Shown one piece after another: positions 2,184-29,349 of a stretch of 39,670 nt of DNA (position 1 is its first letter; every line of letters starts with the position of its first letter). The notes beneath the pieces were generated by a model that was given only the letters and a program-made list of their open reading frames with translations, was not told where the DNA came from and did no database searches. The stretch is from Candidatus Kuenenia stuttgartensis (GTDB taxonomy: Bacteria; Planctomycetota; Planctomycetia; Isosphaerales; Isosphaeraceae). The translations under genes were made by a program, and so were the position numbers. The stretch spans positions 1 to 39,670 of the forward strand of contig CAMCFM010000001.1 of NCBI GenBank assembly GCA_945874095.1, in the 5' to 3' direction.

Positions 2184-2200
2184 TCCTTGAAATCAATGGT

Positions 2201-2254
2201 CCTGGCCGAGTGATGTACCAGCCCCACTGCTCACACTTGGCCGGGCTTTTTTGG
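2201..2254 (+). terminator. Rho-independent terminator candidate
   Basis: CCTGGCCGAGTG (2201-2212) pairs imperfectly with CACTTGGCCGGG (2233-2244). CTTTTTTGG follows. Confidence 0.45.
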
Positions 2255-2349
2255 ATGGTTGGTGTACTGACAGAAACAGCACTGGGCCGTTTCTGTTTGC
2301 TTGGTCAGTTCGTATTTCAGCAATCTCTACCGAAAAGGATGATTTCACC

Positions 2350-6751: not shown

Positions 6752-6919
6752 ACGTTGGTGCCATGGTTCCACTTCCCGGGCCTGGTGGTTTTTAACCCAC
6801 CATAAAAAGTGCCAGGCCTGGAAGTCGTTTTCTGTCGGTGTTGGTCGAATGTCACAAATAGCACTGTGCTGGTTGTGACGTGTTTCTCAGCAAGTTTCAT
6901 CAACAGGACTGCTTTCATC

Positions 6920-7873: not shown

Positions 7874-8006
7874 AAACCGGGCCGGTTGGTGGTTGTCTTT
7901 GGCAACCATTTTACCGGCCACTTGAACTGGTGCGTTATGGTCCAATACCTTCGTGGGTATTGGTTCGGTCTAGTCTCGATAAACTCTGATTGGGGAATAA
8001 ACAGTA

Positions 8007-8681
8007 ATGCGATTGCAACTTGCCAAGGCAGCAGCCTTCATCGGTTTGATAGCATCCCAGATTCATGCCGCACAATCGGCAGAAATATACTCGAATCTGG
8101 GTACTCCAGATTCCAGTGCCAATGCAGCCATTGGATATAACAGTGTTACCAATTTCGATGTCACATACGCGCAGGGTTTTACGACCGGCGCAGGTCTTTA
8201 TCTACTGGACTCAGTGGATCTGCCACTGGGCGTGACGGGCGCCGGCGACGGCTCACCCAAACTCCGAATCTTCTCGAATAATGCCGGAACGCCTGGAACA
8301 GATTTAGGCGTGACGTTCACGGTCCCGGCATTCGGCGCCCAGGCGCTTTACAACTTTTCACTAAACACACCATTTGCATTGTCGGCCAGCACGAGTTACT
8401 GGATGGTTTTGTCAGACACATCCGCCAGCACTCAGACCAAATTCAACTGGTATTTCACCGACACCTTCAGCTCTCCCACAGCCAAGAACGGCTCAGACGT
8501 AAGCTTTCTGGGTGGAGCGAGGTCGAATAACGGTGGTACGTCGTGGACAACGAACAATGCGTTTGCCCAGACAGGCATCACCCTCAATGCCACAGCCGTT
8601 CCCGAGCCAACAACCTATGCACTGGCAGCAATTGCAACAGGCGTGATGGCAATCGTAGCCCGACGCCGCAAGCAAGCCTGA
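8007..8681 (+). CDS. Secreted PEP-CTERM protein
   Basis: The signal peptide is MRLQLAKAAAFIGLIASQIHAAQSA. The C-terminus is AVPEPTTYALAAIATGVMAIVARRRKQA. A 9-bp perfect hairpin lies downstream (ACTCCGCAG 8720-8728 / CTGCGGAGT 8745-8753). Confidence 0.75.
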   Translation: MRLQLAKAAAFIGLIASQIHAAQSAEIYSNLGTPDSSANAAIGYNSVTNFDVTYAQGFTTGAGLYLLDSVDLPLGVTGAGDGSPKLRIFSNNAGTPGTDLGVTFTVPAFGAQALYNFSLNTPFALSASTSYWMVLSDTSASTQTKFNWYFTDTFSSPTAKNGSDVSFLGGARSNNGGTSWTTNNAFAQTGITLNATAVPEPTTYALAAIATGVMAIVARRRKQA

Positions 8682-8862: not shown

Positions 8863-9387
8863 ATGCCATTTTTTCCGCTGTGGCTCTTCTCATTTGAAAA
8901 TGAGTGCAAAATCGCCCCTGTTACAACTCGCAATCAACAAACCAAATGGCCCAAACACTCGGATACGATTCGTGAGGCAGTTGACGAAAATCCGGATCGA
9001 ACCCTCGACAAACGTCTCGATCACTTGAAGATCGGAATCTCCAGAAGCACGCTTTGCCGCGCGTTGAAGGCATTGAAACTGACAATTAAAAAAGTGCTGA
9101 ACGCCGCGGAGCAAGAACGACCTGACGTGAAAGAAAAACGCCGGGAATGGATCGCTGGCCAAGCCAGCTTGGATCCCGAAAAACTGGTGTTCATCGATGA
9201 AACTTGGTTGAAGACGAATATGACCCGTCCACGTGGATCGTCATTGAAAGGCAAACGGCTTGGTGAAAGTGTACCGTTCGGCCATTGGATAAGGACAACG
9301 TTTGTCGCAGCGTTGCTGGCAATTCTTTGCAGAGTCAGGTACAGATTCGATGTAGAGTACCCCTGCCCTCAAATAGGTCAAGCTTGA
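8863..9387 (+). pseudogene. IS630-family transposase fragment (central part only)
   Basis: ISRSTLCRALKALKLTIKKVLNAAEQERPDVKEKRREWIAGQASLDPEKLVFIDETWLKTNMTRPRGSSLKGKRLGESVPFGHWIRTTFVAAL matches the HTH-linker-first-D (DET) region typical of IS630 transposases. The sequence after FVAAL is unrelated and the distal DDE part is missing. Confidence 0.6.
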
Positions 9388-11173: not shown

Positions 11174-14100
11174 TCAGCCCATGCGGGATCTCGCAACAAG
11201 AAGTGTCGAAACCGCTGTCAATCCGAACAGGGAAACGAATAGTAATACGAATGGGAGATTCGAATTCGCAGTCTCAGGTTTATTGCGATCCTTTGACTTT
11301 TTGGCTATCGGATTGGATGATGCCCCCTTCTCCTTTGGATCGGTGGAGTCATTGGCCTGTTTCTCCAAAGCAATACTTTTCCTGACATCCTGATTCGATT
11401 CGGCGGACTGTCGAACGCCTTCGATTGCAGAGACATAAGTGCTTCTGTCTAAATCGGAGAGATTCTCGCCAATATACTCCTGGAGTTTTGCATTATTGCA
11501 AACGAATCCACTACAGGCCGGGTTGAATTCGCGTATCATTTCGAAGTGAGTTGTGGTCAATAAGGCGATTTGCTCAGGAGTCGCCTGCCACAGTCCTTTT
11601 CTCGCAGTCTCCAGCATCACGGCAGTGACTTCCTGCATTGCGAACGGATTCTTGTTACGGAAGTAATCCTTCATTCCCATCTGATATTTGTCCTTGACAT
11701 AGACCTCGTGAAGCTCGTTCCAAAGCTCGTCGTCAATTGCATCAGGCCTCATGGCATTCCATCCATAGGTGTTTCGAACGCTTTCGGCAAAGACTTCAGC
11801 CGCTGATGCCCCTTCCTGCTGAAGCTCCTGGATATATTTTGGGTTGAGTAACGTGGATCGTGCTTCCTGCCAGATTGCTTCTTCGGCATTCTGGACTTTT
11901 GATTGATATTTGTTACGCATATCGACGAAGTATGCAGACGGGTCTTTTCCCGTTGCATCCGCAATTGCATTTGAAAATCCTCCCATAAACTCATAAACAT
12001 GGTCTAGCTTGAGTGGACCGGTCACATTTGAAGTCCGCGAATGCACCAGTGTATCTGTATTCTGTACCGCTGCGTTAAACAGACCAGGCACGAATTCTCC
12101 CCAGTGATCTTCTGTGTAGATCGCTCCCATGTTGTTTTGGTATGTTTCGGCGATCTCTTTGCGATTCTCCCAACGGTCGCCTGCTTCCACCAAGCCCATA
12201 ATTCCGGTTCCGTAATTCCCGTTCACTCCACCGAAAATTCGAGCAGTCGAGAATTTTCTCGCCTCGGCTGGGGAAAGCCCCAATTGCTTTAGCTTTGACT
12301 CGGCAGCGATTGTACCTTCACGCACGTGGTTGGCGAATTTCTCGGAATCGGCAGCTTGTCCGGCAAGCTTTACTGCTCTGTCGATCAGGCTCATTCGAGT
12401 GGCGGCAATGTCGCGAAACTGACCAGCAGTTTGAACAACCACATCAATTCGTGGCCTTCCAAGCTCTTCCACGGGTACTAATCGCACGTCGTGAACCACT
12501 CCGCGTGCATCGCGCACCGGCTCCACACCCAGAAAATGAAAGATCATTGCAAGGTCAACACCCTGACTATTGATAAACTCACCCGGCCAAAGCGTGACGG
12601 CCACCTTCACCGGCTCTTTGCCTGTTTCCTGACGCTTCGATTCAATCGTCTTATCAGCCAGTTTCTTGCCTAAGATCCACGCTTCCGGCGATGGGGTTTT
12701 CTCGGCGTCAATCGGATAAAGGTTACGGCCTGTTGGAACCGATTCCGGGTTCGTTACAGCATCTCCACCCGATGATGGAGAAATGTAGCGCCCGTTAAGC
12801 CCTGCCAGAATCGCCTGGATTTCTGAGTCTGTACTCATTTTAATCCGATCCTGATAGTCTGTAACCGACTGATAAGCATTTGTGAGAGAACGGAGTTGAT
12901 TGACCACTTGCCGTTCCTCCTCATTACGCCTGAGTTTTTCACGACTCAGCATGCCCATGGCTTGTGTCATTTGACTATCAGCGGATTCCTGGACGAGTAA
13001 ATTGCGGAATTTGGCAACGGATTCTGAATGCGAAAGACGATCGGCAAGAGCGGTGTTTTCGCTGGCAAATTTCAACCTCTCTCCAAGCTGATCCAACTGG
13101 TCAGTCTTGAGGGTTTTTAAAAATGAAACGAGGTCTTCATGTGAGAGTGCTGTTAGAATATCCGATTGAAACTCAGGTTTGCTCAGTTCAGCAGCGAATT
13201 TCAATCTTCGTGCCTCAGCTTTTTCGCGAATCTGAGACTGCATCGAGGTATCTGTTAACCAGGAAAGCACTTTATTCCGATTCTCCGCTGATCTCATCGC
13301 ATTAATCAGCTCAGTCATCCCCGGTTTTTGCATCCGATCAAGCGCTTCACGCATGGCTGGCACAAATGTGGCAATACGGCGTGCTTTGCGAAGGGATTCC
13401 GGATCAAGTGATTGAAGAATTCGTTCGTAGTTGGCATCAGTACGCAGAGTTTCGAGAAACTTGAGATTTTCTTGATCATCTGCCACATTCAGAAATTGAA
13501 TTTCAAGCGTAGCGATACTTTGGCCAGGTCTCTGCTTTGTTTCTCCCGAACCACCACCTTTCGGACTTCGACTTTTGGGGTCACCCCCGTTGCCGTTCCG
13601 CTCACCCATTTGAACAAATCTGGCGAACAGGGCATCGTCGCTCATGGTCGGATGGACACGATCCCAATCAGCAATTCTTTTTGTGTCTGCAGGATCCACA
13701 AAGTCGCCCGATTTGGCCGTTCCGGCCAAAATCTTGATGATTGACTCTCGAGCCGGCTGGCGAAAAGCCTTCTCGAAGGCGGAACTGTCGTCAAGTATCT
13801 TATTCGACACTTTTCCTGCAATAATTTTCTTCTGAGCCTCTCCGACGGCTACAGCATCCTGCGACATGAGCCTGGCTGTTTCCTCTGATTCCTCCTTCAA
13901 GTAAGGTCGCCCCAATACATAGAGGCCGCGTGTGATTTTCTCGTCTGCCACGGCATGAAGATAGTCGTGAACCTGTTCAATCTGATCGTCAGTCAGTGGG
14001 TTTGACCCTTCGATTGCGAGCTTAAGGTCTTTTTGCAGATTCAGCTCCGTCACAAGTTTTCTGATTGATATCTCGAGCTCAATTCGAAGCGCTTCGTCCG

Positions 14101-16042
14101 TTGTCGCATCATATCGGCCAATTGTGTCCTGCAAGTTCTTGAGAGGCCCATATAACCCGGATTCAGTCATGGGCGGTGTCAAGTGCGAAACAATGGTCGC
14201 ATAACTGCGGCGCTTTGCGATTACGGCTTCGCCAATGTTATTAATGACATAGACGTAAAGGTGGGGCAGATCCCCTATCAAGGCATCCGGCCAGTCCAAA
14301 TCCGAAAGTGCGTTCTGCTTCCATGGAGTGAACTCCAGACTCCCGTGCGTACCGAAATGCAAAATGGTATCCGCCTGAAAACCATGTCTGGCCCATAAGT
14401 AGGTCGTGATGTAACTGTATGGCGGAGCCTGTTTGGCACCATGAACAAGCCGCTCAGTATCGTCGCCTATGGCTGGCAGGGTTTGAGGTAGAACGGCCAC
14501 ATTGCCGAATTGCAATCGTGGCAATGCAATACACTTCTTCCCATTGTGATCAACGCCAAGATACTCACCTGGAGGTGGACCATATTGTTTCACGACCTCA
14601 GCATACATCGTCGGATCAAGCTGTTTTTTGGCCCATGCTTCGATCTTCCCGACATCTACAAATTCAGGATCGCCCGATTTTACAAATTCGTCTATTTCCC
14701 CCTTGGCATAAGGGCCTAATACAGGGCCCCGCTTACGAATGGTTTCTTCCATGGCTTTGGCATCAGGAGGCAGTTCTCCCGTTTCGTAACCAGCCGCTTT
14801 CAGCGATTTCAAGAGGTTCAGCAACGATGCCCCAACTTCCATCCCACTGGCGACCATTGCGTTCTGGCCAGGCCCCTTGAAATAAACCACAGCGATTTTC
14901 TTTGTCGAATTCGGTTTGGCTCGAAGGTTCAACCAGTGCTGCACGCGAGAGACCAGCTTGTCCATACGTTCAGGCAACGCCTTGGGTACGTTCAACCCTC
15001 GATCATTCGGGAACTGGGCGCTGATCGCAAATGGCTCGATACCACCATCGAGTTCTGGCATCAGGATGTTCTGGGTCATCATCCCGCCTTGCATTCCTTT
15101 TTGCGAGGAAACCCACTTGTCATAGTTTTCAAACACATCGATTGGGCAAATCACCGGTATGCCATTTTCCTGAAGCCACTTTACACATTCGTCTGCTCGC
15201 CCAGCAGCTAAACGCCCGTGCGGAATATAGATGACCAAATCAGGTTTAACGGCTTTCAGATGGTCCAGTCGCTTCATAAAACCTGCAACAGGGTATACGT
15301 TAACGCCCTGTTCCTCGAGTCGATTGACAAGTTCGTCCACATACGACCTGTTTGCCGATCTCGGCCCAAAAATTGATGTCACCAGTGCCACACGATGTTT
15401 ATCAGGCTTGGAGAGCCCTTTCTGATCGCGAAATTTTTCGTAACTGGCCAAATCGGAAAAATAAGCTTCGTCCCCCACATGGAAAAACGCATCCGCAGGA
15501 ATAATGACAGGCGTTTCCGGTTCGTTGGAAAACAGCGTTTTTCCGTCGATCATTCGACGTGTGAATTCCATTAAAGCATGTAAATTCCTCCGCCCACCGT
15601 TCTCAAAATATGCAGCGACTTTTTCCAGCATATCCGACTTCATGTTAGTCACGTCCATAGATGGATTCGTGGCACCAACAACATAAACCAGTAGCCCTCG
15701 TGACGTGGCTTTTCTGACAATCTCGCTTTGCGTTTCTGTGAAATTAACACCACGCCCAAATACGTACATTGCGTGATATTTATTCAAGCTTGCTTTATCC
15801 AGGTCGCCCACATCAAGTTTTGCCAATTGCACCCATGGGTTCGTATTGGCTTCAACCATTTCGTTATACTGAAAGTCTCGAAAATTGACTACCGCGATAC
15901 GAGTTGGAGCGATGTAATGCTCCCATAACCAGGCGAATGATGCTATCGCCAGGCCCAGAATCGCTACGGCGACGATTCGATTTCGGGTAAAACGCTTGCG
16001 TGGTTCCAGGACGGGTTCGGATGATCGTGATGTCTGTTGCAT
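11174..16042 (-). CDS. CobN/Mg-chelatase-family protein (CobN-like, HmuS/BtuS-type context), membrane-anchored at both ends
   Basis: I trimmed ORF 11174..16249 to ATG 16042 (MQQTSRSS...). The longer form would overlap the upstream gene by 128 nt. CobN-family motifs are LHFGTHGSLEFTPWK, DLPHLYVYVINNIGEAVIAKRRSYATIVSHLTPP and SVPTGRNLYPID. The N-terminal TM is IVAVAILGLAIASFAWLW and the C-terminal TM is LPFVLLFVSLFGLTAVSTLLVA. Confidence 0.8.
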   Translation of the reverse strand: MQQTSRSSEPVLEPRKRFTRNRIVAVAILGLAIASFAWLWEHYIAPTRIAVVNFRDFQYNEMVEANTNPWVQLAKLDVGDLDKASLNKYHAMYVFGRGVNFTETQSEIVRKATSRGLLVYVVGATNPSMDVTNMKSDMLEKVAAYFENGGRRNLHALMEFTRRMIDGKTLFSNEPETPVIIPADAFFHVGDEAYFSDLASYEKFRDQKGLSKPDKHRVALVTSIFGPRSANRSYVDELVNRLEEQGVNVYPVAGFMKRLDHLKAVKPDLVIYIPHGRLAAGRADECVKWLQENGIPVICPIDVFENYDKWVSSQKGMQGGMMTQNILMPELDGGIEPFAISAQFPNDRGLNVPKALPERMDKLVSRVQHWLNLRAKPNSTKKIAVVYFKGPGQNAMVASGMEVGASLLNLLKSLKAAGYETGELPPDAKAMEETIRKRGPVLGPYAKGEIDEFVKSGDPEFVDVGKIEAWAKKQLDPTMYAEVVKQYGPPPGEYLGVDHNGKKCIALPRLQFGNVAVLPQTLPAIGDDTERLVHGAKQAPPYSYITTYLWARHGFQADTILHFGTHGSLEFTPWKQNALSDLDWPDALIGDLPHLYVYVINNIGEAVIAKRRSYATIVSHLTPPMTESGLYGPLKNLQDTIGRYDATTDEALRIELEISIRKLVTELNLQKDLKLAIEGSNPLTDDQIEQVHDYLHAVADEKITRGLYVLGRPYLKEESEETARLMSQDAVAVGEAQKKIIAGKVSNKILDDSSAFEKAFRQPARESIIKILAGTAKSGDFVDPADTKRIADWDRVHPTMSDDALFARFVQMGERNGNGGDPKSRSPKGGGSGETKQRPGQSIATLEIQFLNVADDQENLKFLETLRTDANYERILQSLDPESLRKARRIATFVPAMREALDRMQKPGMTELINAMRSAENRNKVLSWLTDTSMQSQIREKAEARRLKFAAELSKPEFQSDILTALSHEDLVSFLKTLKTDQLDQLGERLKFASENTALADRLSHSESVAKFRNLLVQESADSQMTQAMGMLSREKLRRNEEERQVVNQLRSLTNAYQSVTDYQDRIKMSTDSEIQAILAGLNGRYISPSSGGDAVTNPESVPTGRNLYPIDAEKTPSPEAWILGKKLADKTIESKRQETGKEPVKVAVTLWPGEFINSQGVDLAMIFHFLGVEPVRDARGVVHDVRLVPVEELGRPRIDVVVQTAGQFRDIAATRMSLIDRAVKLAGQAADSEKFANHVREGTIAAESKLKQLGLSPAEARKFSTARIFGGVNGNYGTGIMGLVEAGDRWENRKEIAETYQNNMGAIYTEDHWGEFVPGLFNAAVQNTDTLVHSRTSNVTGPLKLDHVYEFMGGFSNAIADATGKDPSAYFVDMRNKYQSKVQNAEEAIWQEARSTLLNPKYIQELQQEGASAAEVFAESVRNTYGWNAMRPDAIDDELWNELHEVYVKDKYQMGMKDYFRNKNPFAMQEVTAVMLETARKGLWQATPEQIALLTTTHFEMIREFNPACSGFVCNNAKLQEYIGENLSDLDRSTYVSAIEGVRQSAESNQDVRKSIALEKQANDSTDPKEKGASSNPIAKKSKDRNKPETANSNLPFVLLFVSLFGLTAVSTLLVARSRMG

Positions 16043-16121
16043 TTTATCTATCTCCGGTTCTGTCCTGCATCCTGATGCAGGACTTTGTGGTGTCAATTGA
16101 GTCAATCGATGAGTGTACGAG

Positions 16122-16463
16122 TTATTCGGGAACGTAAATGATCTGGCCGTTTTCAAGCTCGAAGGCTGTACCGACACGACGGCCTTTGCCTGAGCCTTGT
16201 GTTTTTTCCGAAGCCTTGTAACGGGAAATCTCCTGGCCTTTCTTGACAATTATTTCCATATCAGACTTGCCAGGATTCTTTACCATGGTGACTTCATCCT
16301 GAGTCAGTAGATCTCCAACTTTCAGGCGAGCAACCAAGGCGACCATCAAAGCCAGAGCAAAGACCATCGCCACATCGAAAAGGTTCGCCATCCCCGATAA
16401 AGGATCGTCGTCGCTATCGTCCAAAGTAGAAGTCGAGTCCATCCGACGAAGTTTATTTTCCAT
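16122..16463 (-). CDS. Small single-pass membrane protein (DUF2149-like / ExbD-position partner)
   Basis: GGAGGA lies 7 nt upstream of ATG 16463. The protein has an acidic N-terminus (LDDSDDDPLSGMANLFDV) and then the TM helix AMVFALALMVALV. It overlaps the ExbB-like gene by 11 nt. The family assignment is from memory of the DUF2149 pattern and is not verified. Confidence 0.5.
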   Translation of the reverse strand: MENKLRRMDSTSTLDDSDDDPLSGMANLFDVAMVFALALMVALVARLKVGDLLTQDEVTMVKNPGKSDMEIIVKKGQEISRYKASEKTQGSGKGRRVGTAFELENGQIIYVPE

Positions 16464-17076
16464 GGTGATTCCTCCCCTGCTGGTCTGCCATCCCCAAATT
16501 TAGCAGCCACTCAGTCACTCGCAGATCTTCCAAAGCCCATCGCTGACGAGCCTGGCGACACAAGAAGCCAATCCCTCCAATAAATACTCCGACAACAGTT
16601 GTGGAAAATGCAACTTGAAGATTCGTGGCCATCGTGTCCAGATCTCCTGAGGCCAAACCTTTTAATGCTGGCCCCATGGGGATCAGAGTGCCCATCAGAC
16701 CAAGCATCGGACCCAGGCGAGTGAGTGTCGTTGAAGTTTCCAATGACTTGCGTCCTTGGATTTCAAGATCATCAAGCAGTTTTCGCAGGTGGACCTCGCG
16801 CCACTGAGAATCATTGGCCCGGTTCCATGCCAGAGTCGTTCGTGGACGCCCCTTCGGCAGGCTAGCACCAGTACCGCAAAAGTCTTCAGGCTGGCCCAAC
16901 ATCAACGAATCCTCAAATCGTTTCCATTGACGATGTGTCCGTAGTCGCCTCAACCACTCCGCATGACAATCACCGGCATGAAGCAAAGCCCAAACCAGCA
17001 GCAGGATTTCGCCCGCAATCACGGGTCCTAGTAGCGTATCTGAAAATAGATTCAGCAGACTGTTGAAACTGTTCAA
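16453..17076 (-). CDS. MotA/TolQ/ExbB-family proton-channel protein
   Basis: The C-terminal half LTRLGPMLGLMGTLIPMGPALKGL...NLQVAFSTTVVGVFIGGIGFL matches the ExbB/TolQ signature (GLxGT..G; TT..G). It uses a TTG start that overlaps the upstream stop (TTGA). Confidence 0.7.
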   Translation of the reverse strand: MNSFNSLLNLFSDTLLGPVIAGEILLLVWALLHAGDCHAEWLRRLRTHRQWKRFEDSLMLGQPEDFCGTGASLPKGRPRTTLAWNRANDSQWREVHLRKLLDDLEIQGRKSLETSTTLTRLGPMLGLMGTLIPMGPALKGLASGDLDTMATNLQVAFSTTVVGVFIGGIGFLCRQARQRWALEDLRVTEWLLNLGMADQQGRNHHGK

Positions 17077-17807
17077 GCAAGTCCCCTTTCTTGAAATCGA
17101 TGAATCAGGGTCCGGCCCAGAAAACCCATGAATGGAAGCCCGAGTACGAGAAACCAGATCCAGGCCGGGCCTGATTTAAGGTCGATCACGACACCTGATG
17201 TTCCGAATCCTGATTTTTCACGATTCAGAAGCACAAATGCCACCGCAGACCATGGCAGAAACAGTAGATTTGACATTGCTGCAAGTTCCGTGCGATGCGG
17301 CTTCAATACTGGAATGCCTCGTATGATCAACGAAGAAAACCACATTCCCAGAGCGATCAAAACGCCTGTGATTATTGCAGCCAATTCGAAATCAATCGCA
17401 TTCCATCTCGAAAACACATCGTGCTCGACAAGCAGCAAGGTTGGCACGCAACACAACGCCGGCAAAGTCAGTAGCAAGTCCGCAAGAATACGAATCTTAT
17501 ACCCGGCATCATCTTTCATCGACTTCCAGAGAACGACCGGAACTACAATCGACTCGATGGTGAGTAAAGCCAGTATGGATGTCCTATTGATATCGTCGTT
17601 CAGATAAGACCTTATTCGAAGCTCTGAAACGTCAGCAATCCTGTCTGCCGCATACCAAGCGATGAATATTGTGAACAATGCGATTGCAAAAGTGGCTTTG
17701 CGATAACCCGATGCTGCCCATTTCATGGCTGTGATCAGACATGATAGCGAAAGCCACAGTAAAACAGCCGACTTCAATGGAGGCCTCCCAGATTCTTTTA
17801 TGGACAT
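17073..17807 (-). CDS. Multi-pass integral membrane protein, function unknown
   Basis: The 244-aa ORF has about 6-7 hydrophobic segments. It starts 40 nt after the DUF1559 stop and overlaps the ExbB-like gene by 4 nt. I recognise no motif. Confidence 0.55.
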   Translation of the reverse strand: MSIKESGRPPLKSAVLLWLSLSCLITAMKWAASGYRKATFAIALFTIFIAWYAADRIADVSELRIRSYLNDDINRTSILALLTIESIVVPVVLWKSMKDDAGYKIRILADLLLTLPALCCVPTLLLVEHDVFSRWNAIDFELAAIITGVLIALGMWFSSLIIRGIPVLKPHRTELAAMSNLLFLPWSAVAFVLLNREKSGFGTSGVVIDLKSGPAWIWFLVLGLPFMGFLGRTLIHRFQERGLA

Positions 17808-17846: not shown

Positions 17847-18872
17847 TCAATAGGTGTCTGCCGAGATGACCTCGCCACCATTACGTGAAGCTAATGATCG
17901 CCAGGTTTCGACTGGGATCGAATCTTTCACGAACCGAACCGAACCATCTGACATTAACGTAATCACACCTCCTGGATGAAAACTCCTCGCTGCATGCCAG
18001 CCTCGTCCGTGTGCATTAAGATCAGGTATCTTTGAATTTGGTGGCAGATATGCGCTGTATCCTGTACTAGTGAGCCGTCCCACCAGCCAAGAATAACCGC
18101 GATCCCCCCTCCAGCTATTAATATTGCCAGTCAAAGCAGCCAAGTCCGGATTTACTAATTGTTTTCCTCCAAGTGACAAACCTGGCAAGCCTGGAGAAAG
18201 TGATGTATTCGATGCATATTGCCGGTTAAAATCACTTGGTTTTGGACCACTGCTTGTCAGATTGTTACCCAGCCGAATCTGGCTTGCCATCATGGTATTT
18301 GATGTGCCATCAGAGACATTCGCAATCGTGACAGCTGAACCGTACCAAAACATTCCATCCGTTGGAATTTCAATATGATAGTTCAGCATGGTTCCGGATC
18401 CAGTACAAACTGCATAGTTTGTACCAGCAGAATCTCCACCAAGATTTGCAGTAAATCGCGGATTTCCACCATCCGATGGACAGAGAAAGCTGCCAACCAC
18501 ATAATTTGCCGCAGTGATCAGCGGAGGGTTAAATCGAATGTTTGGTCCTGAGCCGGTATAAACAGGCACATTGAAATTGACGAGATTCACAAGTGATGCC
18601 TGTTCCATATAAGGCAGGATTCGTGCAAGGGGTGAGAATGCAAATGCTGTAGAATGGCCGAATCCCGGGAAGCAACCCACAGTGTTTTCGTAATTGTGCA
18701 TCGCAAGTCCAATCTGCTTGAGATTGTTTGTACTGCTGATACGACGGGCTGCTTCTCTGGCAGACTGTACCGCCGGAAGTAGCAATGAAATCAATACCGA
18801 AATGATTGCAATCACAACCAGTAGCTCGATGAGCGTGAAACCTTTTCCAGACTGACTTCTTGTAGTTCGCAT
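17847..18872 (-). CDS. DUF1559 protein with prepilin-type N-terminal cleavage/methylation motif
   Basis: MRTTRSQSGKG|FTLIELLVVIAIISVLISLLLPAVQSAREAARR at the N-terminus. The C-terminal H-X9-DG motif is FHPGGVITLMSDGSVRFVKDSI. Confidence 0.85.
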   Translation of the reverse strand: MRTTRSQSGKGFTLIELLVVIAIISVLISLLLPAVQSAREAARRISSTNNLKQIGLAMHNYENTVGCFPGFGHSTAFAFSPLARILPYMEQASLVNLVNFNVPVYTGSGPNIRFNPPLITAANYVVGSFLCPSDGGNPRFTANLGGDSAGTNYAVCTGSGTMLNYHIEIPTDGMFWYGSAVTIANVSDGTSNTMMASQIRLGNNLTSSGPKPSDFNRQYASNTSLSPGLPGLSLGGKQLVNPDLAALTGNINSWRGDRGYSWLVGRLTSTGYSAYLPPNSKIPDLNAHGRGWHAARSFHPGGVITLMSDGSVRFVKDSIPVETWRSLASRNGGEVISADTY

Positions 18873-19030
18873 GAAATGACCCTAGCTATGACGTATTTGT
18901 GAAAACCTGAACTTGGAACCAAGGCTAAGCCATTGGTATTTAATTGCTTGTTGATCTATGTGCAGGCAATTCCCGCTGAACGACGATAGTCGTCAGAATT
19001 GCACTTATTGAATTCCATATGAATCGAATG

Positions 19031-19120
19031 ATCTAATTCACGGCGATTTCTCCGTTACGACGGTTGGGAGGTCAAGGGTTCAAAGGGGACGGGCTACCAG
19101 TTCCACCCCTCTGCACCACT
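19031..19120 (-). promoter_or_regulatory. Conserved structured leader motif, copy 1 (159 nt upstream of DUF1559 gene 17847..18872)
   Basis: A 62-nt core (19049-19110) matches 21512-21573 at 60 of 62 positions. On the minus strand the hairpin CAGAGGGG...CCCCUUUG differs from the hairpin in copy 2 by compensatory changes. Confidence 0.45.
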
Positions 19121-19144
19121 AAAATAGAACTTCTTTGGTTGGGT

Positions 19145-20239
19145 TCAGTGCGATTTCATTCTATGGGTATTTCCTTTAAATACCTTTTGATTGGAAAAGT
19201 ACAGAATCTGTTTGCCGCACCTGAATATTCTCGATTGATTTGGTACGACTGTTAGCGTCCGGTTCAAAAGAGAAGGTCTGTGATCCACCAGATTAATATC
19301 ATGGACAGAAATCAAAGACGATTGATCAATAACATGCGAACCTGTCGAATGAGAAGCAACCTGGGTTGGAAATAATCCAAGCATTGCGTTCTCAGGTCTG
19401 CACTCGCCTTGACCATTATCAAACCAGTCTCGAATCAGAGCAACGATCCCTGGTTTGCCTTCGCCTATATATAATTCCCGTCGTTTTTTATACTCCGAAA
19501 GAATGAGTTCTGCCTGAGCCTTGATTTCAATGTCTTCGCTCCTGGGAGAAGATCCTTTGGGAATCGCCCAGACAAATCTGTTGGTTTGTGAAACATGCGT
19601 TGCAACCGAAAAGAAGTCGCGAGGAATCAATTTCGTGTCTTTTGAACTCAGTCTCGACTTTTCCGCTTCCACAAAGAAATCAACTGCATAGTCAGGGTAC
19701 CCAAACTGATATCCCGATGCACGCAACCGGTCGGACCGATCGGCGTGTTCCATCTTCTCAATAATTGTCATTGCTCTGGTTTCGGGAGTCAATCCATATG
19801 CGTCATAGAATGACGAGTGCTTTTCAACCATGGTCCTGAGCGATTTACGATTCGCAATCCATGCATGCGCATGACGCTTACCACCTGTAAGAGCTTGAAA
19901 AACCAGAACCTCGGATTCGAATGCTTCGCCACACTGAAATGCATCTAGAATCTTGCGTGTTTCACGGATTGATGACAATTCGGGCTGTGTTACTGAAAAA
20001 CTGCCTGTCCAGAACGAACTTGAAATCGGTTTCAGACTTCCAACCACTGTGTACAGTGCCTCACTGTCCATCAGTTTCAAAAGCAGTTGCTCGGCTTTCT
20101 TTTGTAATTCCGGTGGCAATTTTTCGACAGGAAAGCAGTCGTACCGGCTGACACCGACACCCTGGCCATTCGCTGCAAAGGTGTAAAGCATCATCAGCAA
20201 CACATTCAACACAAGCTTCATCAAGTTTCGAATTGTCAT
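19145..20239 (-). CDS. Secreted protein of unknown function
   Basis: I trimmed ORF 19145..20398 to ATG 20239 (MTIRNLMKLVLNVLLMMLYTFAANGQG, a signal peptide) to remove the overlap with the upstream DUF1559 gene. No motif recognised. Confidence 0.6.
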   Translation of the reverse strand: MTIRNLMKLVLNVLLMMLYTFAANGQGVGVSRYDCFPVEKLPPELQKKAEQLLLKLMDSEALYTVVGSLKPISSSFWTGSFSVTQPELSSIRETRKILDAFQCGEAFESEVLVFQALTGGKRHAHAWIANRKSLRTMVEKHSSFYDAYGLTPETRAMTIIEKMEHADRSDRLRASGYQFGYPDYAVDFFVEAEKSRLSSKDTKLIPRDFFSVATHVSQTNRFVWAIPKGSSPRSEDIEIKAQAELILSEYKKRRELYIGEGKPGIVALIRDWFDNGQGECRPENAMLGLFPTQVASHSTGSHVIDQSSLISVHDINLVDHRPSLLNRTLTVVPNQSRIFRCGKQILYFSNQKVFKGNTHRMKSH

Positions 20240-20294
20240 AGGATTCAGGCCTCTTGTACTTTCTTCGTTGCAACTCAGGGAGAAAATCGATTGA

Positions 20295-21332
20295 TTAATA
20301 GGTGTCACCACTAAAAACCTCTCCTCCAGACCTTGTTCCCAAAGCTCGATATGTCTTGAGATCGATTGATTCCTTGAGAAATCGAACTGATCCGTCACTC
20401 ATCAAGAAGTTTGCACCGCCAGGATGCAAACTCCGAAACCCGAATTGACCGAGTAACAAACTCCTCGGATCATCCACCCAAGTCTTCGAATGTGTACCGT
20501 TTGAAGGATCCACAACCCATGATGGTCTGCCAATATAAGGCCTTGAATTTAGCTTCGGTACAACATAGGAGCCACCTGAGATACGAATGTCATTCCAGCT
20601 TTCATATCTGGGCGGAGTTCCTAGATCGCCCCCTCCCCATGCTCCTCCCACATTCGCAATGTTGAATCGACTGTATGGAGATTCCTCACGAAATCGCGAT
20701 GTTTCACCCACCATCAGAGTGTTGCTTAAACCATCTGATATATTTGCAATGGAATAAGATACGTTTCTACCAAAAACACCCTCTGAAATAATGGCACCAC
20801 ATAACTGTGCGTTCATGACATTAGTGCCAGTTCCATAGTTGTTTGCGATGCATTCTGTAAGCCCAAAGACTCCAGCGTATGAGATCTGCGTAATCTTAAA
20901 ACTGGTTCGCGACTGATCCGCCTTGGTATCGGTTGGGCAAAGAAACGTTGCCACGGAATTTTCCCATACAGATGTATTTGGTGGGAAACCTGCAGGATGA
21001 CTAAAGTTCAAGGCATTGTATTTATTGCCCTGCTCCAGGTATGGCATGATGTAGTTTGACCAGGTGTGCCCCCAGCTCGATGTGCATGGAACCTGAGTGT
21101 ACCGAGATTGGGCAATATAACCAGGTGGAAATGTACCGATCGCATTTTCGTAATTATGGATCGCCAACCCAAACTGCTTCATGTTATTGGAGCATTGGAT
21201 TCGACGGGCTGCTTCCCTGGCAGACTGAACCGCCGGAAGTAGCAACGAGATCAATACCGAAATGATTGCAATCACAACCAGTAACTCAATGAGTGTGAAT
21301 GCTTTCAGCTGCTCTTTCCCTGAAATCTTCAT
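20295..21332 (-). CDS. DUF1559 protein with prepilin-type N-terminal cleavage/methylation motif
   Basis: ORF 20295..21362. I prefer ATG 21332 (MKISGKEQLKA|FTLIELLVVIAIISVLISLLLPAVQSAREAARR). It gives the same 11-aa leader as the paralogue and has GAGAGG 6 nt upstream. The H-X9-DG motif is LHPGGANFLMSDGSVRFLKESI. Confidence 0.85.
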   Translation of the reverse strand: MKISGKEQLKAFTLIELLVVIAIISVLISLLLPAVQSAREAARRIQCSNNMKQFGLAIHNYENAIGTFPPGYIAQSRYTQVPCTSSWGHTWSNYIMPYLEQGNKYNALNFSHPAGFPPNTSVWENSVATFLCPTDTKADQSRTSFKITQISYAGVFGLTECIANNYGTGTNVMNAQLCGAIISEGVFGRNVSYSIANISDGLSNTLMVGETSRFREESPYSRFNIANVGGAWGGGDLGTPPRYESWNDIRISGGSYVVPKLNSRPYIGRPSWVVDPSNGTHSKTWVDDPRSLLLGQFGFRSLHPGGANFLMSDGSVRFLKESIDLKTYRALGTRSGGEVFSGDTY

Positions 21333-21493
21333 TAGAACCTCTCTTCTTACATGCGAGTGCATGCTTCTCGATTCTGACTAGCGGCAAGTTATTGCTATTT
21401 GGTGGTTTATTGATTGGCGCAGTGGTGCATTTTGCGAAATAGACGACCATTTACGCAGTTTCGCACTTGTGAGAATTCACTAAAATCAGGATA

Positions 21494-21583
21494 ATCTACT
21501 TCATGGCTTTCTCTCCGTTACGACGGTTGGGAGGTCAAGGGTTCGAAGGGGACGGGCTACCAATTCCACCCCTTCGGCCCACT
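21494..21583 (-). promoter_or_regulatory. Conserved structured leader motif, copy 2 (162 nt upstream of DUF1559 gene 20295..21332)
   Basis: Same motif as 19031-19120. The hairpin CGAAGGGG (21544-21551 on +) / CCCCTTCG (21569-21576) is perfect. Confidence 0.45.
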
Positions 21584-21610
21584 TTTTATCTGACTGCTAT
21601 TGCAACTGGA

Positions 21611-22846
21611 TCAATTGTTTTCAACCGAGTTAGCTTCGGCCCTCTTTACATCCCATTTTGGGAAAGGATCCTGGAAGAAGCCCCAGGAATCAGGCCCTGC
21701 TTTCATCTCTTCATCTGTCAATAAGCATTCTTGAAGTGCATCGTAAATGGCAATCTCATCCATTCCGATTCCAATAAAGACCAGCTCCTGTCGGCAGTCA
21801 CCAACCTGTGGATCCCAGTACTTTTGAATGGATGTCGTAAAACCGGGTACATCAGGCCACTCAGAAATGGGTACGGATGCCCACCAGAAACCGGCAACAT
21901 CGAGCCTCGCCACACGACCAGCCTGTGACCAGACTCCAACTTTATCAAGCCTTGTTGCCAGCCAGAAAAACCCCTTTGAACGTAGTACGCCTTGCCACGA
22001 TTGCCTTAGTATCTCAAAAAACCGTTGAGGATGAAACGGTCTCCTGGATCTATATACAAAGCTGCTGACGCCATACTCTTCGGTTTCCGTTGTACCTTCC
22101 TCACGTAAAGCGACTTGCCAGCCTTTCGACATTTTCGCCCGTTCGAAATCAAATCGTTTTGTGCCTACAATCTTCTCTAGTGGTACCTCGCCGAATTGCG
22201 AATCTACAAGGAGAGCATAAGGATTGAGCTTTTCCAGGAATAATCGCAACTCAGCCATCTCACCCTTGCTAACCAGATCGGATTTGTTCATCACAATCAC
22301 GTCGGCAAATTCAACCTGATCGATCAATAAGTCGGCCATAGTCCGAATGTCCTGATCAGAAGCCGCTTGGCCACGATTCTGTAAATCCTCGCCGATCCGT
22401 AGGTCGCTCAGAAAATTGACTGCATCGACCACGGTTACCATCGTGTCCAACTCCGCAAAATCAGACAATGCCTGGCCGTTGGCCAACGCAAAAGTAAAGG
22501 TGTCGGCCACCGGAGCGGGCTCTGAAATGCCAGTCGATTCGATAAGGAGATAGTCAAATCGCCCTTCACTGGCTAATTGACTCACCTCTATCAATAGGTC
22601 CTCCCGGAGAGTGCAGCAAATGCAACCATTGGTCATTTCAACCAATTTCTCTTCCGAGCGGCTCAAAGCCGCTGAGCCATTGGCAATCAATTGAGCATCG
22701 ATATTTACCTCGCTCATATCATTCACAATCACAGCAACTTTGAGACCATCACGATTACTCAAAACGTGATTCAGAAGGCTGGTTTTGCCGGCTCCCAGAA
22801 AACCTGAGAGCACCGTGACAGGAAGCTTTTTTACAAGCTTATTCAT
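21611..22846 (-). CDS. COG0523-family (CobW/ZigA/YeiR-like) metallochaperone GTPase
   Basis: I trimmed ORF 21611..22930 to ATG 22846, which has GGAGGGA upstream. It carries the P-loop [13 protein letters not shown], the CXCC metal motif [19 protein letters not shown] and NKSDL. Confidence 0.85.
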
Positions 22847-24143
22847 TGCTCCCTCCTGTATCACGATCAAATTGAATTTGTGATTCCGAATCAGGTTCCT
22901 CAAAAACCCAAAGCTCAAACGGATCTTCAAGTTCCTGCCAGGACTCGACTCCGCTCCTTATCTCGGATTCACTCAACAAACAGTTGTTCAAAGAGGCAAT
23001 CATTGCATCCTGATCCATGTCGATACCAATAAAAACCAACTCCTGGGCCCGGTCCCCCCATATGGGATGCCAATTATTCATGACTCGTTCACATTCTATA
23101 GGGTCGTCAGGCCATTCCTCTTTCGGCGTAATCGCCAGCCATTTCCCAGCATATTCAATACGGCAATTATGACCTGCCATTGAATAATAACCCACGTCGT
23201 CATTACGACTTGCGAGCCATAGAAATCCTTTCGCCCGCAATAAACCGTGCGGCGGTTTATTGATCCAGCTCCATAATCGAGCAGGGTGAAATGGCTTTGT
23301 GGATCGATAAACAAAACTTGTGACACCGTATTCGTCTGCTTCGGATGCTACCATATCCCGTGGTGATGATAACCAGCCTTCTGACTTCTCGGCATTCTGG
23401 AATTCAAAAAGACCTGTCCCCATGATCTCTTCGACTGCAATCCGACCATAGCTGGTCCTTAAGAACTTCGCCGAAGGATTCAACTTTCTCACAAACGACT
23501 CAATCTGACTCAGTTGATCTTCGTCCACCAAATCCGTTTTGTTAATCAAAATGACGTTGGCAAACTCGACCTGATCAATCAACAGATCCACGATCGACCG
23601 ATCGTCAGATTCGTTCACCGCCCAACCACGATCCTGGAGTTCATCGGTCGTTCCAAATTCATTGAAAAATGAACGGGCATCAATCACTGTAACCATCGTA
23701 TCAAGTCGAGCAAGACTTTTGAGACTTTGCCCTTCATCATCCTGAAATGTAAATGTTTCAGCCACCGGCATCGGCTCAGAGATTCCTGTGGATTCTATTA
23801 ATAGATACTCAAAGCGGCCATCCTGGGCAAGCTTTGAAACCTCTTCAAGCAAATCTTCCCTCAGAGTACAGCAAATACAACCATTGGTCATCTCAATGAG
23901 TTTTTCATCGCGACGAACAAATGATGAATCTGGCCCTGGTGGCCTGGAGATCAACTTCGAATCAATATTGATCTCACTCATATCATTAACGATTACTGCA
24001 ATTTTCAGCCCTTGAGTATTTGATAGAATCTGGTTCAAAAGCGTTGTTTTGCCTGAACCGAGGAATCCGGACAACACTGTGACTGGTAATCGGGAATCCG
24101 CAACTGATTGCATTTCTCTCTGAGCGTTCACTAAAGTTTTCAT
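22839..24143 (-). CDS. COG0523-family metallochaperone GTPase (tandem paralogue)
   Basis: I trimmed ORF 22839..24248 to ATG 24143 (MKTLVNAQ...). It carries [32 protein letters not shown] and NKTDL. It overlaps the downstream paralogue by 8 nt. Confidence 0.85.
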
Positions 24144-24572
24144 ATGACTCTCTGTTTGTGACTTGTGTTTGATCCATGCCGACCAGCCATGGCTAAAACA
24201 GCCGGGCAGATCATACTCGAACACAAATGGAATCCAACCATTTTTCAAGAGCTTTACACGGAATTCTTTTACTTGGATCGCACGTAATCCGAGATCTGGT
24301 GAATCTCGATACGATCCGGTATCCGTTCAGTTTGTATCTGTACCCAAATTCCAGGCATGACTGAGTTCAATGTCCCATTGACACAATCAGGACTAAAATC
24401 CCAGCAAATTCAGATCGCTGGAATGGGATTAGCCGTAATTTGATCACGGATTCAAACGCCAATATATTCAGGATCTGATATGCTCTGAGAATCAGAGCAA
24501 CCCATCCCCGCGTCAGAACCTCATACCAAATCAAAACAATCCAGAGAGGTTAAAAACCTCTTCAAAGACGCA

Positions 24573-27454: not shown

Positions 27455-27717
27455 ACAAGTTATGGCTTGCGTTTACAAAAGGGAGCGATCAAGCTGATCG
27501 ACTTCGGGCTTGCTGTTTCTAAAGATCCCACAAATTCGAATGGAAGGATTACGGCTGGAACCAAGGGCTTTACGTCTCCCGAACAGGCGATTGAATGACG
27601 CAGGTGAATCCGGATGAGCGGTATCAGAGCATTCTGGAAGTCATTAACGACTTGGAATTCCTGAAAGCGCATGGTTCCCTGCCTACGACTCGATTGGGGA
27701 TGGAAATGAGCATCTAA
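27455..27717 (+). pseudogene. Ser/Thr protein kinase remnant (subdomains VII-VIII and XI only)
   Basis: The first frame reads LQKGAIKLIDFGLAVSKDPTNSNGRITAGTKGFTSPEQAIE* with its stop at 27596-27598. A shifted frame starting at 27604 reads VNPDERYQSILEVINDLEFL...* with its stop at 27715-27717. The N-lobe and subdomains IX-X are missing. The remnant ends 4 nt before the ISL3 inverted repeat. Confidence 0.5.
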
Positions 27718-28205
27718 AATTGGCTCTTCCGCACTTTTGGTTGACACGGGAGTTTTAGCAAGACCCTCCGCCTCAACAGTTCAAAACTTCCCCGACCATA
27801 CATCTGGCGTTTGATTGTTTTCAGTCGGTTCACCTGACCCTCGACCTGACCGTTGCTCCATTCGCAGTTCAACGCCTCCTTCACGGCCATTTCGTCTTGC
27901 TGAAGGCCGGATGCAAAATGACGAATCTCCGATGGCATTTCCTTTGAAATCGCTTCACTCAGCCAACCTGTCCAATTCTCAATTCGGTGATTGCAAACCA
28001 TTTTGACGAATTCCTGACCAACTTTTCTGGCTTGGCGGAACACTGGATTGATTGACAAAAGCCTGTCCAGGAAGTGTTTGTCTTCGGTAGTCAGATACTC
28101 ATCATCGATGACCAGCAGACGTGAAACAGTTGACGCCGATGGCGGTTCGCCTGAACACTTGACTGCGACAGGCTTCAACGCCCCCCCCCGCCACTTGGCA
28201 ACCAT
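27714..28205 (-). pseudogene. ISL3 transposase, C-terminal fragment
   Basis: HFLDRLLSINPVFRQARKVGQEFVKMV...WLSEAISKEMPSEIRHFASGLQQDEMAVKEALNCEWSNGQVEGQVNRLKTIKRQMYGRGSFELLRRRVLL matches the conserved ISL3 C-terminal region. Confidence 0.75.
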
Positions 28206-28851: not shown

Positions 28852-29349
28852 ATGACCTATACAAACAGAAGGACTGGTGTGATACTATCAACCTGCTGCG
28901 TGGCCGACATCACAAGAATGAGGTATTTACCAGTGGGTGATCAACTTAAATTCGAGCCTTCAAACCTGACCCAGCCTCAGTTCCACCAGTTGTCGGAATG
29001 TGCGCATGCGGCGGAAAATTTATCTCCCCAGGTGCTAATTACTGCTGCAAAACAACACCTTGAGCGTACTCAAGCCGCCCATGCGTCTAATCGGCTAATC
29101 AATTTACGCCTTGCTACTGCAATTGTCAGTGTGCTGGAAGAGTTGGTGAACGCCCGGGGTATCATGGAAACAAATCAGGCGTGGTGGTTGAGAGGAGCGA
29201 TGTACTATTTCACAACCAGCAACGATGATGAGCCTGATTTTCAATCGCCTCTAGGGTTTGAGGACGATGCTGAAATCCTGAATGCCTGCTTGAAATTTAT
29301 CGACCGAAACGACCTATGTCTGAATGTTGAGGATTACGACAATGCCTAA
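28852..29349 (+). CDS. Small soluble protein with a DUF1232-like motif; first gene of the helicase/methylase operon
   Basis: 165-aa ORF, with an alternative start at ATG 28918 (MRYLPVG...). YYFTTSNDDEPDFQSPLGFEDDAEILNACL follows the DUF1232 pattern Y....P.D.IPDF.P..G..DD..V but without hydrophobic helices. Its stop overlaps the helicase start (ATGCCTAA). Confidence 0.5.
   Translation: MTYTNRRTGVILSTCCVADITRMRYLPVGDQLKFEPSNLTQPQFHQLSECAHAAENLSPQVLITAAKQHLERTQAAHASNRLINLRLATAIVSVLEELVNARGIMETNQAWWLRGAMYYFTTSNDDEPDFQSPLGFEDDAEILNACLKFIDRNDLCLNVEDYDNA

Follow-up and report, generated by a model that had tools for sequence, protein, structure and literature searches.

A candidate structured RNA element with a two-codon mini-ORF precedes DUF1559 genes in a zinc-limitation-like gene cluster of uncultured Planctomycetota

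Two-codon minigenes have so far been shown to be important only in isolated experimental cases, namely LEE1, axe-txe and lambda bar. The lambda bar minigenes are toxic through peptidyl-tRNA drop-off, an effect that is not implied for the element described here. Longer leader open reading frames (ORFs) are known from the mgtL/mgtA and corA systems that act with Rho, in which ribosome occupancy of a short ORF affects downstream transcription or translation. The peptides encoded by these ORFs have several to approximately 17 residues, and amino acids or Mg2+ are detected by way of ribosome speed. The LEE1 leader of enterohaemorrhagic Escherichia coli contains a translated AUG AAA UAG minigene located 123 nt upstream of ler, which is needed for optimal ler expression and whose position matters (PMC3262186). 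The two-codon mini-ORF mg2 of axe-txe acts in cis, possibly via mRNA protection (PMC8708949). With regard to gene content, the closest described system is the Zur-linked operon PA1922-PA1925 of Pseudomonas aeruginosa, which encodes CobN-like, ExbB/D-like and hypothetical proteins and is among the operons most strongly induced by zinc depletion (PMC4542158). The element described here joins a two-codon mini-ORF to a conserved hairpin and is found upstream of two DUF1559 genes in a 39,670 nt stretch of contig CAMCFM010000001.1 (assembly GCA_945874095.1), deposited as Candidatus Kuenenia stuttgartensis and placed by GTDB in the Isosphaeraceae of the Planctomycetota. This whole stretch is referred to below as the window.

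The element is present in two copies on the minus strand of the window, copy 1 at 19116-19031 (GTGCAGAGGGGTGGAACTGGTAGCCCGTCCCCTTTGAACCCTTGACCTCCCAACCGTCGTAACGGAGAAATCGCCGTGAATTAGAT) and copy 2 at 21579-21494 (GGCCGAAGGGGTGGAATTGGTAGCCCGTCCCCTTCGAACCCTTGACCTCCCAACCGTCGTAACGGAGAGAAAGCCATGAAGTAGAT), each approximately 86 nt in length. It is best read as a cis-acting structured RNA that lies between a gene of the zinc-related cluster, or its partner gene, and a DUF1559 gene and that would gate a minigene, a reading to which we assign a probability of roughly one half. Since no described RNA family matches, the element probably represents a new, narrowly distributed regulatory leader. The first-pass annotation of this DNA had proposed a cis-regulatory RNA, either a riboswitch or an attenuator, or a protein-binding leader that controls DUF1559 operons. 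The part of this proposal that stands is a conserved, structured RNA on the gene strand that is tied to DUF1559 genes, whereas no expression platform acting on the ribosome-binding site (RBS) of DUF1559 was found for a riboswitch and no terminator for an attenuator. Both of these readings are therefore unproven, as neither a terminator nor a helix sequestering the Shine-Dalgarno (SD) sequence of the main gene was found.

As in the LEE1 leader, the closest counterpart of its 3' half that has been studied by experiment, the element features an SD, an AUG, one A-rich codon and UAG, and the mini-ORF of one homologous locus (L024) is exactly AUG AAA UAG. Both leaders are long, with the minigene stop 123 nt before ler and 147-163 nt before the DUF1559 start. 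LEE1 is a single enterobacterial experimental case with no conserved structured module described before its SD (PMC3262186), whereas the putative minigene of the element is phylogenetically conserved and joined to a covarying hairpin. The axe-txe and lambda bar mini-ORFs likewise have two codons and their own SD and act in cis on a downstream cistron, with distance and position mattering, but belong to toxin-antitoxin or phage settings without an associated conserved RNA structure. SD-occluding riboswitches and protein-binding leaders resemble the element in their conserved structured domain, in which stems covary and unpaired nucleotides are conserved, and in a helix that overlaps the SD (P2 in this case), though here the SD serves a two-codon ORF instead of the regulated gene and there is no Rfam match. 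The fold is also much simpler than that of the metal riboswitches czcD or yybP-ykoY. The long leader, the short ORF and a C-rich, G-poor segment are shared with the mgtL/mgtA and corA systems; in contrast to these, the two-codon ORF is too short for amino acid sensing and incapable of sensing of that kind. A structured leader and a two-codon minigene are both known ideas, and their combination was not found described; both halves of the element are backed by evolutionary evidence.

Over the 62-nt core noted in the first-pass annotation (19049-19110 versus 21512-21573), the copies match at 60 of 62 positions. When up to three mismatches are allowed, either half of the core is found exactly two times in the window, with 0 occurrences expected from shuffled sequences. 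The flanks are diverged as had been claimed: ungapped identity drops when the comparison grows by 20-30 nt per side, to 66/82 and 68/92 when the core is extended on its 5' side and to 74/82 and 78/92 on its 3' side, and a gapped alignment of the whole leaders has a mean column identity of 78%, with gaps and many differences outside the core. An identity of about 85% had been estimated by eye for the best-conserved stretch of the two DUF1559 coding sequences, and the best block, within the pilin-like N-terminal segment, is identical at 101/120 positions (84%). The two DUF1559 proteins exhibit 37% identity overall. The distance of approximately 160 nt given for both copies applies to the mini-ORF stops, which lie 160 and 163 nt from the gene, but not to the end of the core, which lies 176-179 nt before the starts at 18872 and 21332. 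The copies differ only by pairing-preserving changes in hairpin P1 and by one loop base. Near-identity of the copies beside paralogous genes this old suggests concerted evolution.

Orthologous DNA was fetched around the closest protein matches, among uncultured Planctomycetota related to Isosphaeraceae. Three other uncultured Planctomycetota lineages carry diverged forms of the element at the syntenic position, approximately 250 nt ahead of a DUF1559 gene. The first-pass annotation had named a lack of further copies, or of supported covariation in homologous leaders, as grounds for abandoning its proposal; further copies exist, and covariation is seen in all three additional lineages. The first of these (L001) encodes an 80%-identical orthologue of the copy 2 gene in the order CobW-type gene, element, DUF1559 gene (c2-type) and partner gene, and its element is diverged (GCCGGGGGAGTCGATTTGGTATCCCGTCTCCCCCGAGCACAAGCCCACCACCGCAGTAACGGAGAAGAGCTATGAACTAG). 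A public gene call of 34 amino acids (aa) at L001 5753-5857 lies on top of the RNA element and is probably a spurious ORF. The second (L024) encodes a 77% orthologue of the copy 1 gene and has the partner gene upstream of the element. The third (L025) encodes a 74% orthologue of the copy 1 gene, and its motif is the same in L026-L029 and L032; the upstream gene in L025 and L028 is of the CobW type. The order in L024 and L025 is element, DUF1559 gene (c1-type), membrane protein gene(s), ExbB, DUF2149 and CobN-like. A contig of the same species as the window (L022) carries a variant of copy 1. Models R1 and R2, run with filters off, identified no extra copies in the window and none in L005, L006 (Paludisphaera soli), L015 and L023, which are high-GC Isosphaeraceae orthologues, or in L007 and L013, which are unrelated DUF1559 paralogues outside the cluster. 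Strict two-block DNA patterns searched against 185,579 species genomes (one per GTDB species) and Joint Genome Institute (JGI) metagenomes returned only L001, L022 and chance coding hits. The element is real but rare, with six distinct sequences from four lineages. One further protein, P0126 (431 aa), covers 70% of the length of the copy 1 DUF1559 protein at 100% identity and also matches ThyX (PF02511); it probably derives from a chimeric or misassembled contig.

The first structural feature of the element is a hairpin composed of the stem P1 and its extension P1b. In copy 1 this hairpin occupies 19081-19113, with arms at 19113-19106 (CAGAGGGG) and 19088-19081 (CCCCUUUG) that enclose the loop region at 19105-19089 (UGGAACUGGUAGCCCGU). 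The copy 2 hairpin occupies 21544-21576, with arms at 21576-21569 (CGAAGGGG) and 21551-21544 (CCCCUUCG) and a loop region of 17 nt at 21568-21552 (UGGAAUUGGUAGCCCGU), within which AAUUGGUAGC forms the apical loop. This is the hairpin that the first-pass annotation had read on the gene strand, and the two changes it had listed are recovered: between CAGAGGGG/CCCCUUUG and CGAAGGGG/CCCCUUCG one A-U pair becomes G-C through a double change and one G.U pair becomes A-U. The 3-bp UGG/CCG segment of P1b prolongs P1 with a bulge (a bulged U in copy 2), which leaves an apical loop of 10 nt. The hairpin is followed by a C-rich unpaired linker of 17 nt, located at 21527-21543 in copy 2 (AACCCUUGACCUCCCAA) and at 19064-19080 with the same sequence in copy 1; the linker positions shared by the window copies vary between lineages. 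The small hairpin P2 directly follows the linker, at 21515-21526 in copy 2 (CCG-UCGUAA-CGG) and at 19052-19063 in copy 1. Its 3' arm takes in the first two G residues of the GGAG at 21516-21513 in copy 2 and overlaps the GGAG at 19053-19050 in copy 1. Two elements listed earlier as conserved are so only in part. The hairpin written as CCGU-CGUA-ACGG is present in both window copies, but other lineages keep only three of its pairs, and the CCUCCC tract is likewise present in both copies, but the corresponding stretch elsewhere is only C-rich with an invariant CCA.

Across the six distinct sequences of a model-based alignment (A5), 98.5% of cells are paired. The observed pairing values were reached by 0/500 shuffles, and sliding the partners by 1-3 columns reduces pairing to 44-64%. 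Double (compensatory) changes are present in 7/11 base pairs, and six of the eight P1 pairs are changed on both sides across lineages. All three P2 pairs are retained, with one G-C pair flipped to C-G in L025. RNAalifold, applied independently to the rows of A5, returns the same three helices: P1 (8 bp), P1b (3 bp, with a bulged nucleotide) and P2 (3 bp). The P1 arm is CGAAGGGG, CAGAGGGG, CGGGGGAG or UCCCAGGG depending on the lineage, every one complemented by its opposite arm; in L024 the stem is longer, and one C-A mismatch occurs. The apical loop is conserved as A-N-N-U-G-G-Y-A-G/U-C (AAUAGCAGC in L025), the CCA directly 5' of P2 is invariant in all lineages, and GGAG(A) is also conserved. 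Arms that vary around a constant loop fit an RNA hairpin that is recognised via its loop and not a DNA operator. The first-pass annotation had also used the G.U pair of copy 1 as an argument for the strand. This pair does favour the gene strand, but in L024 the C-A mismatch would become G.U if read on the opposite strand, so that the wobble evidence is balanced and the gene strand is chosen on the basis of constant orientation and translation signals. Two possible tertiary or alternative pairings were rejected. Pairing of the loop UGG with the invariant CCA fails in one lineage for either choice of UGG, and CCUCC as an anti-SD for GGAG is not kept in L001 or L024.

The second feature is a two-codon mini-ORF with its own SD. 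In copy 1 the GGAG at 19053-19050 is followed after an 8-nt spacer by GUG AAU UAG at 19041-19033, and in copy 2 the GGAG at 21516-21513 is followed after an 8-nt spacer by AUG AAG UAG at 21504-21496. The GGAGA element and two-codon ORFs reported earlier at these positions are accordingly present in both copies, and the architecture is conserved in the other lineages. The counterparts are GUG AAA UAG in L022, AUG AAC UAG in L001, AUG AAA UAG in L024 and AUG UAC UAA in L025. An SD, a spacing of 7-10 nt, AUG or GUG, a single sense codon and UAG or UAA are found in 6/6 distinct sequences, and the sense codons differ. Variation is confined to the first position of the start codon (A/G), positions 1 and 3 of the second codon and the third position of the stop codon (G/A). 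Positions at which a change would ruin the start or stop do not vary, and all substitutions preserve start, sense and stop. By a hand estimate that is not a formal test, approximately 41% of random substitutions would preserve the architecture, which for six or more independent events gives p of about 0.005. The pattern GGAG-N5-10-RTG-sense-stop occurs three times in 79 kb (both strands of the window), and two of these occurrences are the motif. A hidden longer peptide past the UAG was rejected, because a conserved AAGUGC box lies in different frames in the two copies. Plus-strand ORFs over the motif (19064-19255 and 21503-21724) were rejected, as their start is unconserved (CATG versus CGTG). 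The mini-ORFs have the features of the LEE1 and axe-txe type of minigene, namely SD spacing, a start, one sense codon and a stop, in a co-oriented leader at a constrained distance from the gene, and may be translated.

The remainder of the leader is less uniform. In the leaders compared, the mini-ORF stop and the DUF1559 start are separated by 160, 163, 157, 147 and 160 nt. An AAGU(G/U)C box located 26-27 nt past the stop (11 nt in L024) opens an extended hairpin, P3, which together with the box spans 21425-21468 on the minus strand in copy 2 (z = -3.4) and 18960-19006 in copy 1 (z = -3.2). The z-scores of P3 across the leaders are -3.2, -3.4, -1.9, -0.6 and -3.3, and the hairpin is considered provisional because the segment boundaries were picked after folding. 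A C-rich, G-poor box follows on the same strand at 21394-21417 in copy 2 (CCAAUCAAUAAACCACCAAAUAGC), with a counterpart at 18935-18957 in copy 1 (AGAUCAACAAGCAAUUAAAUACC). The copy 2 box has its homologue in the Paludisphaera orthologues as the TTGATAAACC box and could be a promoter or operator remnant or an unstructured stretch of RNA. In Paludisphaera (L006 at approximately 5880-5900 and L015 at approximately 380-400), TTGACG-N16-GATAAA is located about 100 nt before the DUF1559 gene and overlaps the near-palindrome TGATAAACCATTATCA; by reading only, this region has the appearance of a sigma-70 promoter combined with a Fur/Zur-type operator. The Fur-like box TTGATAAACCATTATCA is present only in L006 and L015. 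No palindrome of the TGATAAACCATTATCA type was found in the window within three mismatches, and the window leaders retain only a degenerate, non-palindromic homologue of the Paludisphaera box. Control at the DNA level and control at the RNA level may be alternatives in different lineages.

The element starts shortly after the stop of the upstream co-oriented gene: 31 and 34 nt in the window, 9 nt in L001, approximately 8-11 nt in L024 and 22-25 nt in L025 and L028. A spacer of this length cannot hold a promoter, so transcription of the element would either continue from the upstream gene or begin at a promoter within the 3' end of that gene. Given this short distance, it may be intercistronic rather than part of a true 5' leader. 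A scan for promoter and terminator consensus sequences found nothing on the minus strand in the leaders, with counts equal to those of shuffled sequences.

The Rfam scan recommended in the first-pass annotation returned no family: with Rfam 15, the window has 0 matches at gathering score and the region 18800-21700 has 0 at E<=10 with permissive filters. Covarying helices accompanied by conserved unpaired nucleotides, as expected of a riboswitch, are present. No expression platform was found, as the motif lacks a terminator-like site and conserved pairing to the DUF1559 SD, approximately 150 nt away, was not found, and P2 overlaps the SD of the mini-ORF only. An attenuator of the trp/his type was rejected because the ORF contains one sense codon that varies by lineage (Lys, Asn, Tyr) and because no terminator is present. 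A tRNA-like element was rejected as well, since ARAGORN identified none in the window or in 18 loci, Rfam gave none at E<=10, and the loop GG is AG in L025. The copy 2 sequence at 21552-21579 on the minus strand (GCCGAAGGGGUGGAAUUGGUAGCCCG) resembles the acceptor and D-arm of bacterial tRNA-Leu, a likeness that has no tool support and is lost in other lineages; it may reflect chance or evolutionary origin. A dispersed repeat (repetitive extragenic palindrome, miniature inverted-repeat transposable element or insertion sequence end) does not fit two copies in the window, one copy per orthologous locus and a constant syntenic position. A Fur/Zur-type operator, expected as an A/T-rich palindrome of about 15-19 bp with conserved half-sites, does not fit G+C-rich arms, sequence changes with compensation and a 17-nt spacer. 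With respect to a CsrA-type pattern, which calls for one GGA in a hairpin loop and another over the SD, a GGA overlaps the SD in all copies; the window copies, L024 and L025 also have a GGA where the P1 loop begins on its 5' side, whereas L001 has UCGA at this place.

The mechanism that we propose is that the P1-linker-P2 module would set the frequency of ribosome loading on the two-codon minigene via access to its SD. P2 is too weak to hide the SD alone and would need a bound partner or a tertiary contact. A trans-acting partner, or possibly a ligand, that recognises the conserved loop and linker would determine the state of the module. The pattern of linker variation speaks slightly more for a macromolecular partner (protein or RNA) that is lineage-specific than for a small ligand that is universal, and recent gene conversion between the copies also fits the shared linker. 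Ribosomes initiating and terminating on the minigene would act in cis on the approximately 150-nt untranslated stretch that follows, by protection from Rho or nucleases or by refolding, and we infer as the outcome that expression of the DUF1559 operon would be tuned relative to the upstream genes. A relay through pairing with the RBS is not part of this model, since such pairing is convincing only in L025.

A bolder and rather speculative extension, which we consider unlikely, is that the element represents a new class of RNA sensor for metal status, most plausibly zinc, or the target of a zinc-dependent RNA-binding protein, with the minigene as its platform. Sensing would then gate loading on AUG-NNN-stop and license an uptake system of DUF1559 pseudopilins, CobN-like and ExbB proteins. 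If true, this would be, to our knowledge, the first RNA-level regulator of a zinc-starvation cluster and the first phylogenetically conserved minigene platform.

Apart from this extension, a conserved minigene fused to a covarying hairpin suggests that minigenes can be evolved expression platforms. The element also marks a subset of the very large, uncharacterised DUF1559 family of Planctomycetota, found in ZigA/CobN-like/ExbB/DUF2149 clusters, and this subset offers a handle on DUF1559 proteins and on the metal-limitation response of the phylum. The narrow distribution limits its general importance.

Several observations weigh against a cis-acting RNA that gates the minigene. The alignment A5 was fitted to the model, which favours structure, and six distinct sequences from four lineages are too few for covariation statistics of the R-scape type. 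When the whole 95 nt are folded, the stability of P1 is not above that of shuffled sequences (z = -0.7 and -1.6), and a pseudoknot search over all column pairs found only P1 and P2 to stand out. The near-identity of the window copies may come in part from gene conversion and not from selection. A promoter could be located in the interval that separates the element from the DUF1559 gene, at the box approximately 100 nt before the starts, which would leave the element as a 3' untranslated region or a stand-alone unit. The segment that follows the minigene pairs convincingly with the DUF1559 RBS in no lineage except L025, through an 8-bp perfect match.

A processing or stability element that senses nothing is possible but not likely. 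In this explanation P1 would protect the 3' end of the upstream cistron, or stabilise a 5' end after cleavage in the A/U-rich spacer, while the minigene would keep ribosomes on the leader, and together they would fix the stoichiometry of the operon products. The location of the element soon after the upstream stop in every lineage, behind an A/U-rich stretch, is consistent with this function, as is the lack of terminator and promoter consensus at or near the element, and the axe-txe minigene has been proposed to shield mRNA from endonuclease attack (PMC8708949). A protective hairpin has no need of the conserved 10-nt loop, the linker or the invariant CCA, however, and these imply specific recognition. 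Recognition of a metal or small molecule, such as Zn2+ or a metallophore handled by the CobN-like/ExbB system, by a P1-linker-P2 aptamer is rather doubtful. In such a riboswitch the bound ligand would make P2 more stable, so that the minigene SD is masked and the downstream operon is switched, which agrees with the conserved unpaired nucleotides beside covarying stems, the overlap of the P2 3' arm with the SD and the metal-homeostasis context of the cluster (PMC4542158); without an Rfam match it would be a new class. Its aptamer would be very simple, with one hairpin plus a 3-bp hairpin and no supported pseudoknot or junction, and its distribution very narrow at four lineages. The linker varies between lineages and is the same within the genome, which a macromolecular partner or gene conversion fits better, and the SD concerned is that of the mini-ORF and not of the gene.

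The C-rich unpaired segment between the two hairpins (CCUCCC, CCCUCC or CCCACC) raises the idea of a trans-acting small RNA (sRNA) that is cut from the operon transcript and pairs with the SDs of its targets under metal limitation, and zinc-responsive sRNAs are reported from other bacteria (PMC13586535). We regard this as very improbable, since a terminator and a stable 3' hairpin are both lacking, with P2 at only 3 bp and no U tract after it, and since the conserved SD and mini-ORF and the fixed distance to the DUF1559 start would be left unexplained. Equally remote is a DNA-level origin, either as an inverted repeat of an operator or promoter or as a non-functional tract of recent duplication or gene conversion. 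Near-identical copies beside old paralogous genes (37% protein identity) agree with such a tract, but the arms change and yet stay complementary, the 17-nt spacer is the conserved part, and synteny is conserved in four lineages. Moreover, the 39.7 kb contain no more than two copies, the fetched loci have none at other places, and the orientation to the genes is constant.

Returning to the cis-acting RNA, the genes that surround it are all encoded on the minus strand. The order of the cluster is COG0523, ZigA-type gene, copy 2, DUF1559, partner, copy 1, DUF1559, membrane protein, MotA/ExbB, DUF2149 and CobN-like. The first of two COG0523 GTPase genes (22839-24248) is located at the upstream end. 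The second (21611-22930) encodes a ZigA-type COG0523 zinc metallochaperone GTPase, with a score of 605 bits against the NCBIfam ZigA model NF038288 (cutoff 600), and its stop precedes copy 2 by 34 nt. As listed, the two paralogous ORFs share 92 nt (22839-22930), and the true start of the second gene is probably further downstream. No copy of the RNA element was found between the two COG0523 genes. The DUF1559 gene after copy 2 (20295-21332, c2-type) encodes a PulG-like pseudopilin with an H-X9-DG motif, and its probable start is the ATG at 21332, as homologues begin MKISGKEQ. The partner gene (19145-20239) has no assigned function, and its stop lies 31 nt upstream of copy 1. Its protein has no sequence match in Pfam, NCBIfam or PDB; in the window and in orthologues (L001 7084-8151, L005 7048-8016, L006 7596-8639 and L015 1566-2606) it is approximately 320-364 aa in length with an N-terminus that is signal-peptide-like by eye, and the gene always follows the c2-type DUF1559 gene. 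The DUF1559 gene after copy 1 (17847-18872, c1-type) is followed at 11174-17807 by the genes for the membrane protein, MotA/ExbB, DUF2149 and the CobN-like chelatase. The membrane protein before MotA/ExbB is 244 aa in length with no annotation. The chelatase (11174-16249) is 1691 aa in length and scores under every CobN/BchH equivalog cutoff.

This cluster resembles a system for acquisition under zinc limitation, possibly cobalt, because its gene content is similar to that of PA1922-PA1925, which likewise encodes a CobN-like chelatase, ExbB/D-like and hypothetical proteins and is induced by zinc depletion (PMC4542158). COG0523 genes are typical of zinc-limitation regulons. The gene context, in the form of the ZigA-type COG0523 protein and the CobN-like/ExbB/DUF2149 genes, points to zinc limitation and not to a corrinoid or haem. 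The Pseudomonas operon is controlled by Zur at a DNA box, whereas here an RNA element precedes the DUF1559 genes and only the high-GC orthologues, which do not have the element, show a Fur/Zur-like box. The genes at 11174-17807 form a PA1923-25-like module that is combined with DUF1559 pseudopilins in place of a TonB-dependent receptor, and by this comparison the pseudopilin-like proteins would occupy the place of the Pseudomonas receptor. DUF1559 was not linked to riboswitches or zinc in the literature searched.

Outside the cluster, the region 29324-39215 on the plus strand has three adjacent genes, for an SNF2/helicase (1001 aa), an Eco57I/MmeI-type methyltransferase-like protein (1878 aa) and a DUF429 protein, which are a possible restriction or defence island. 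Transposase fragments are located nearby, with ISL3 at 27714-28205 and IS630 at 8863-9387. Several PEP-CTERM-anchored proteins are encoded on the plus strand at 1167-3288 and 6809-8681, two of them with NHL beta-propeller repeats.

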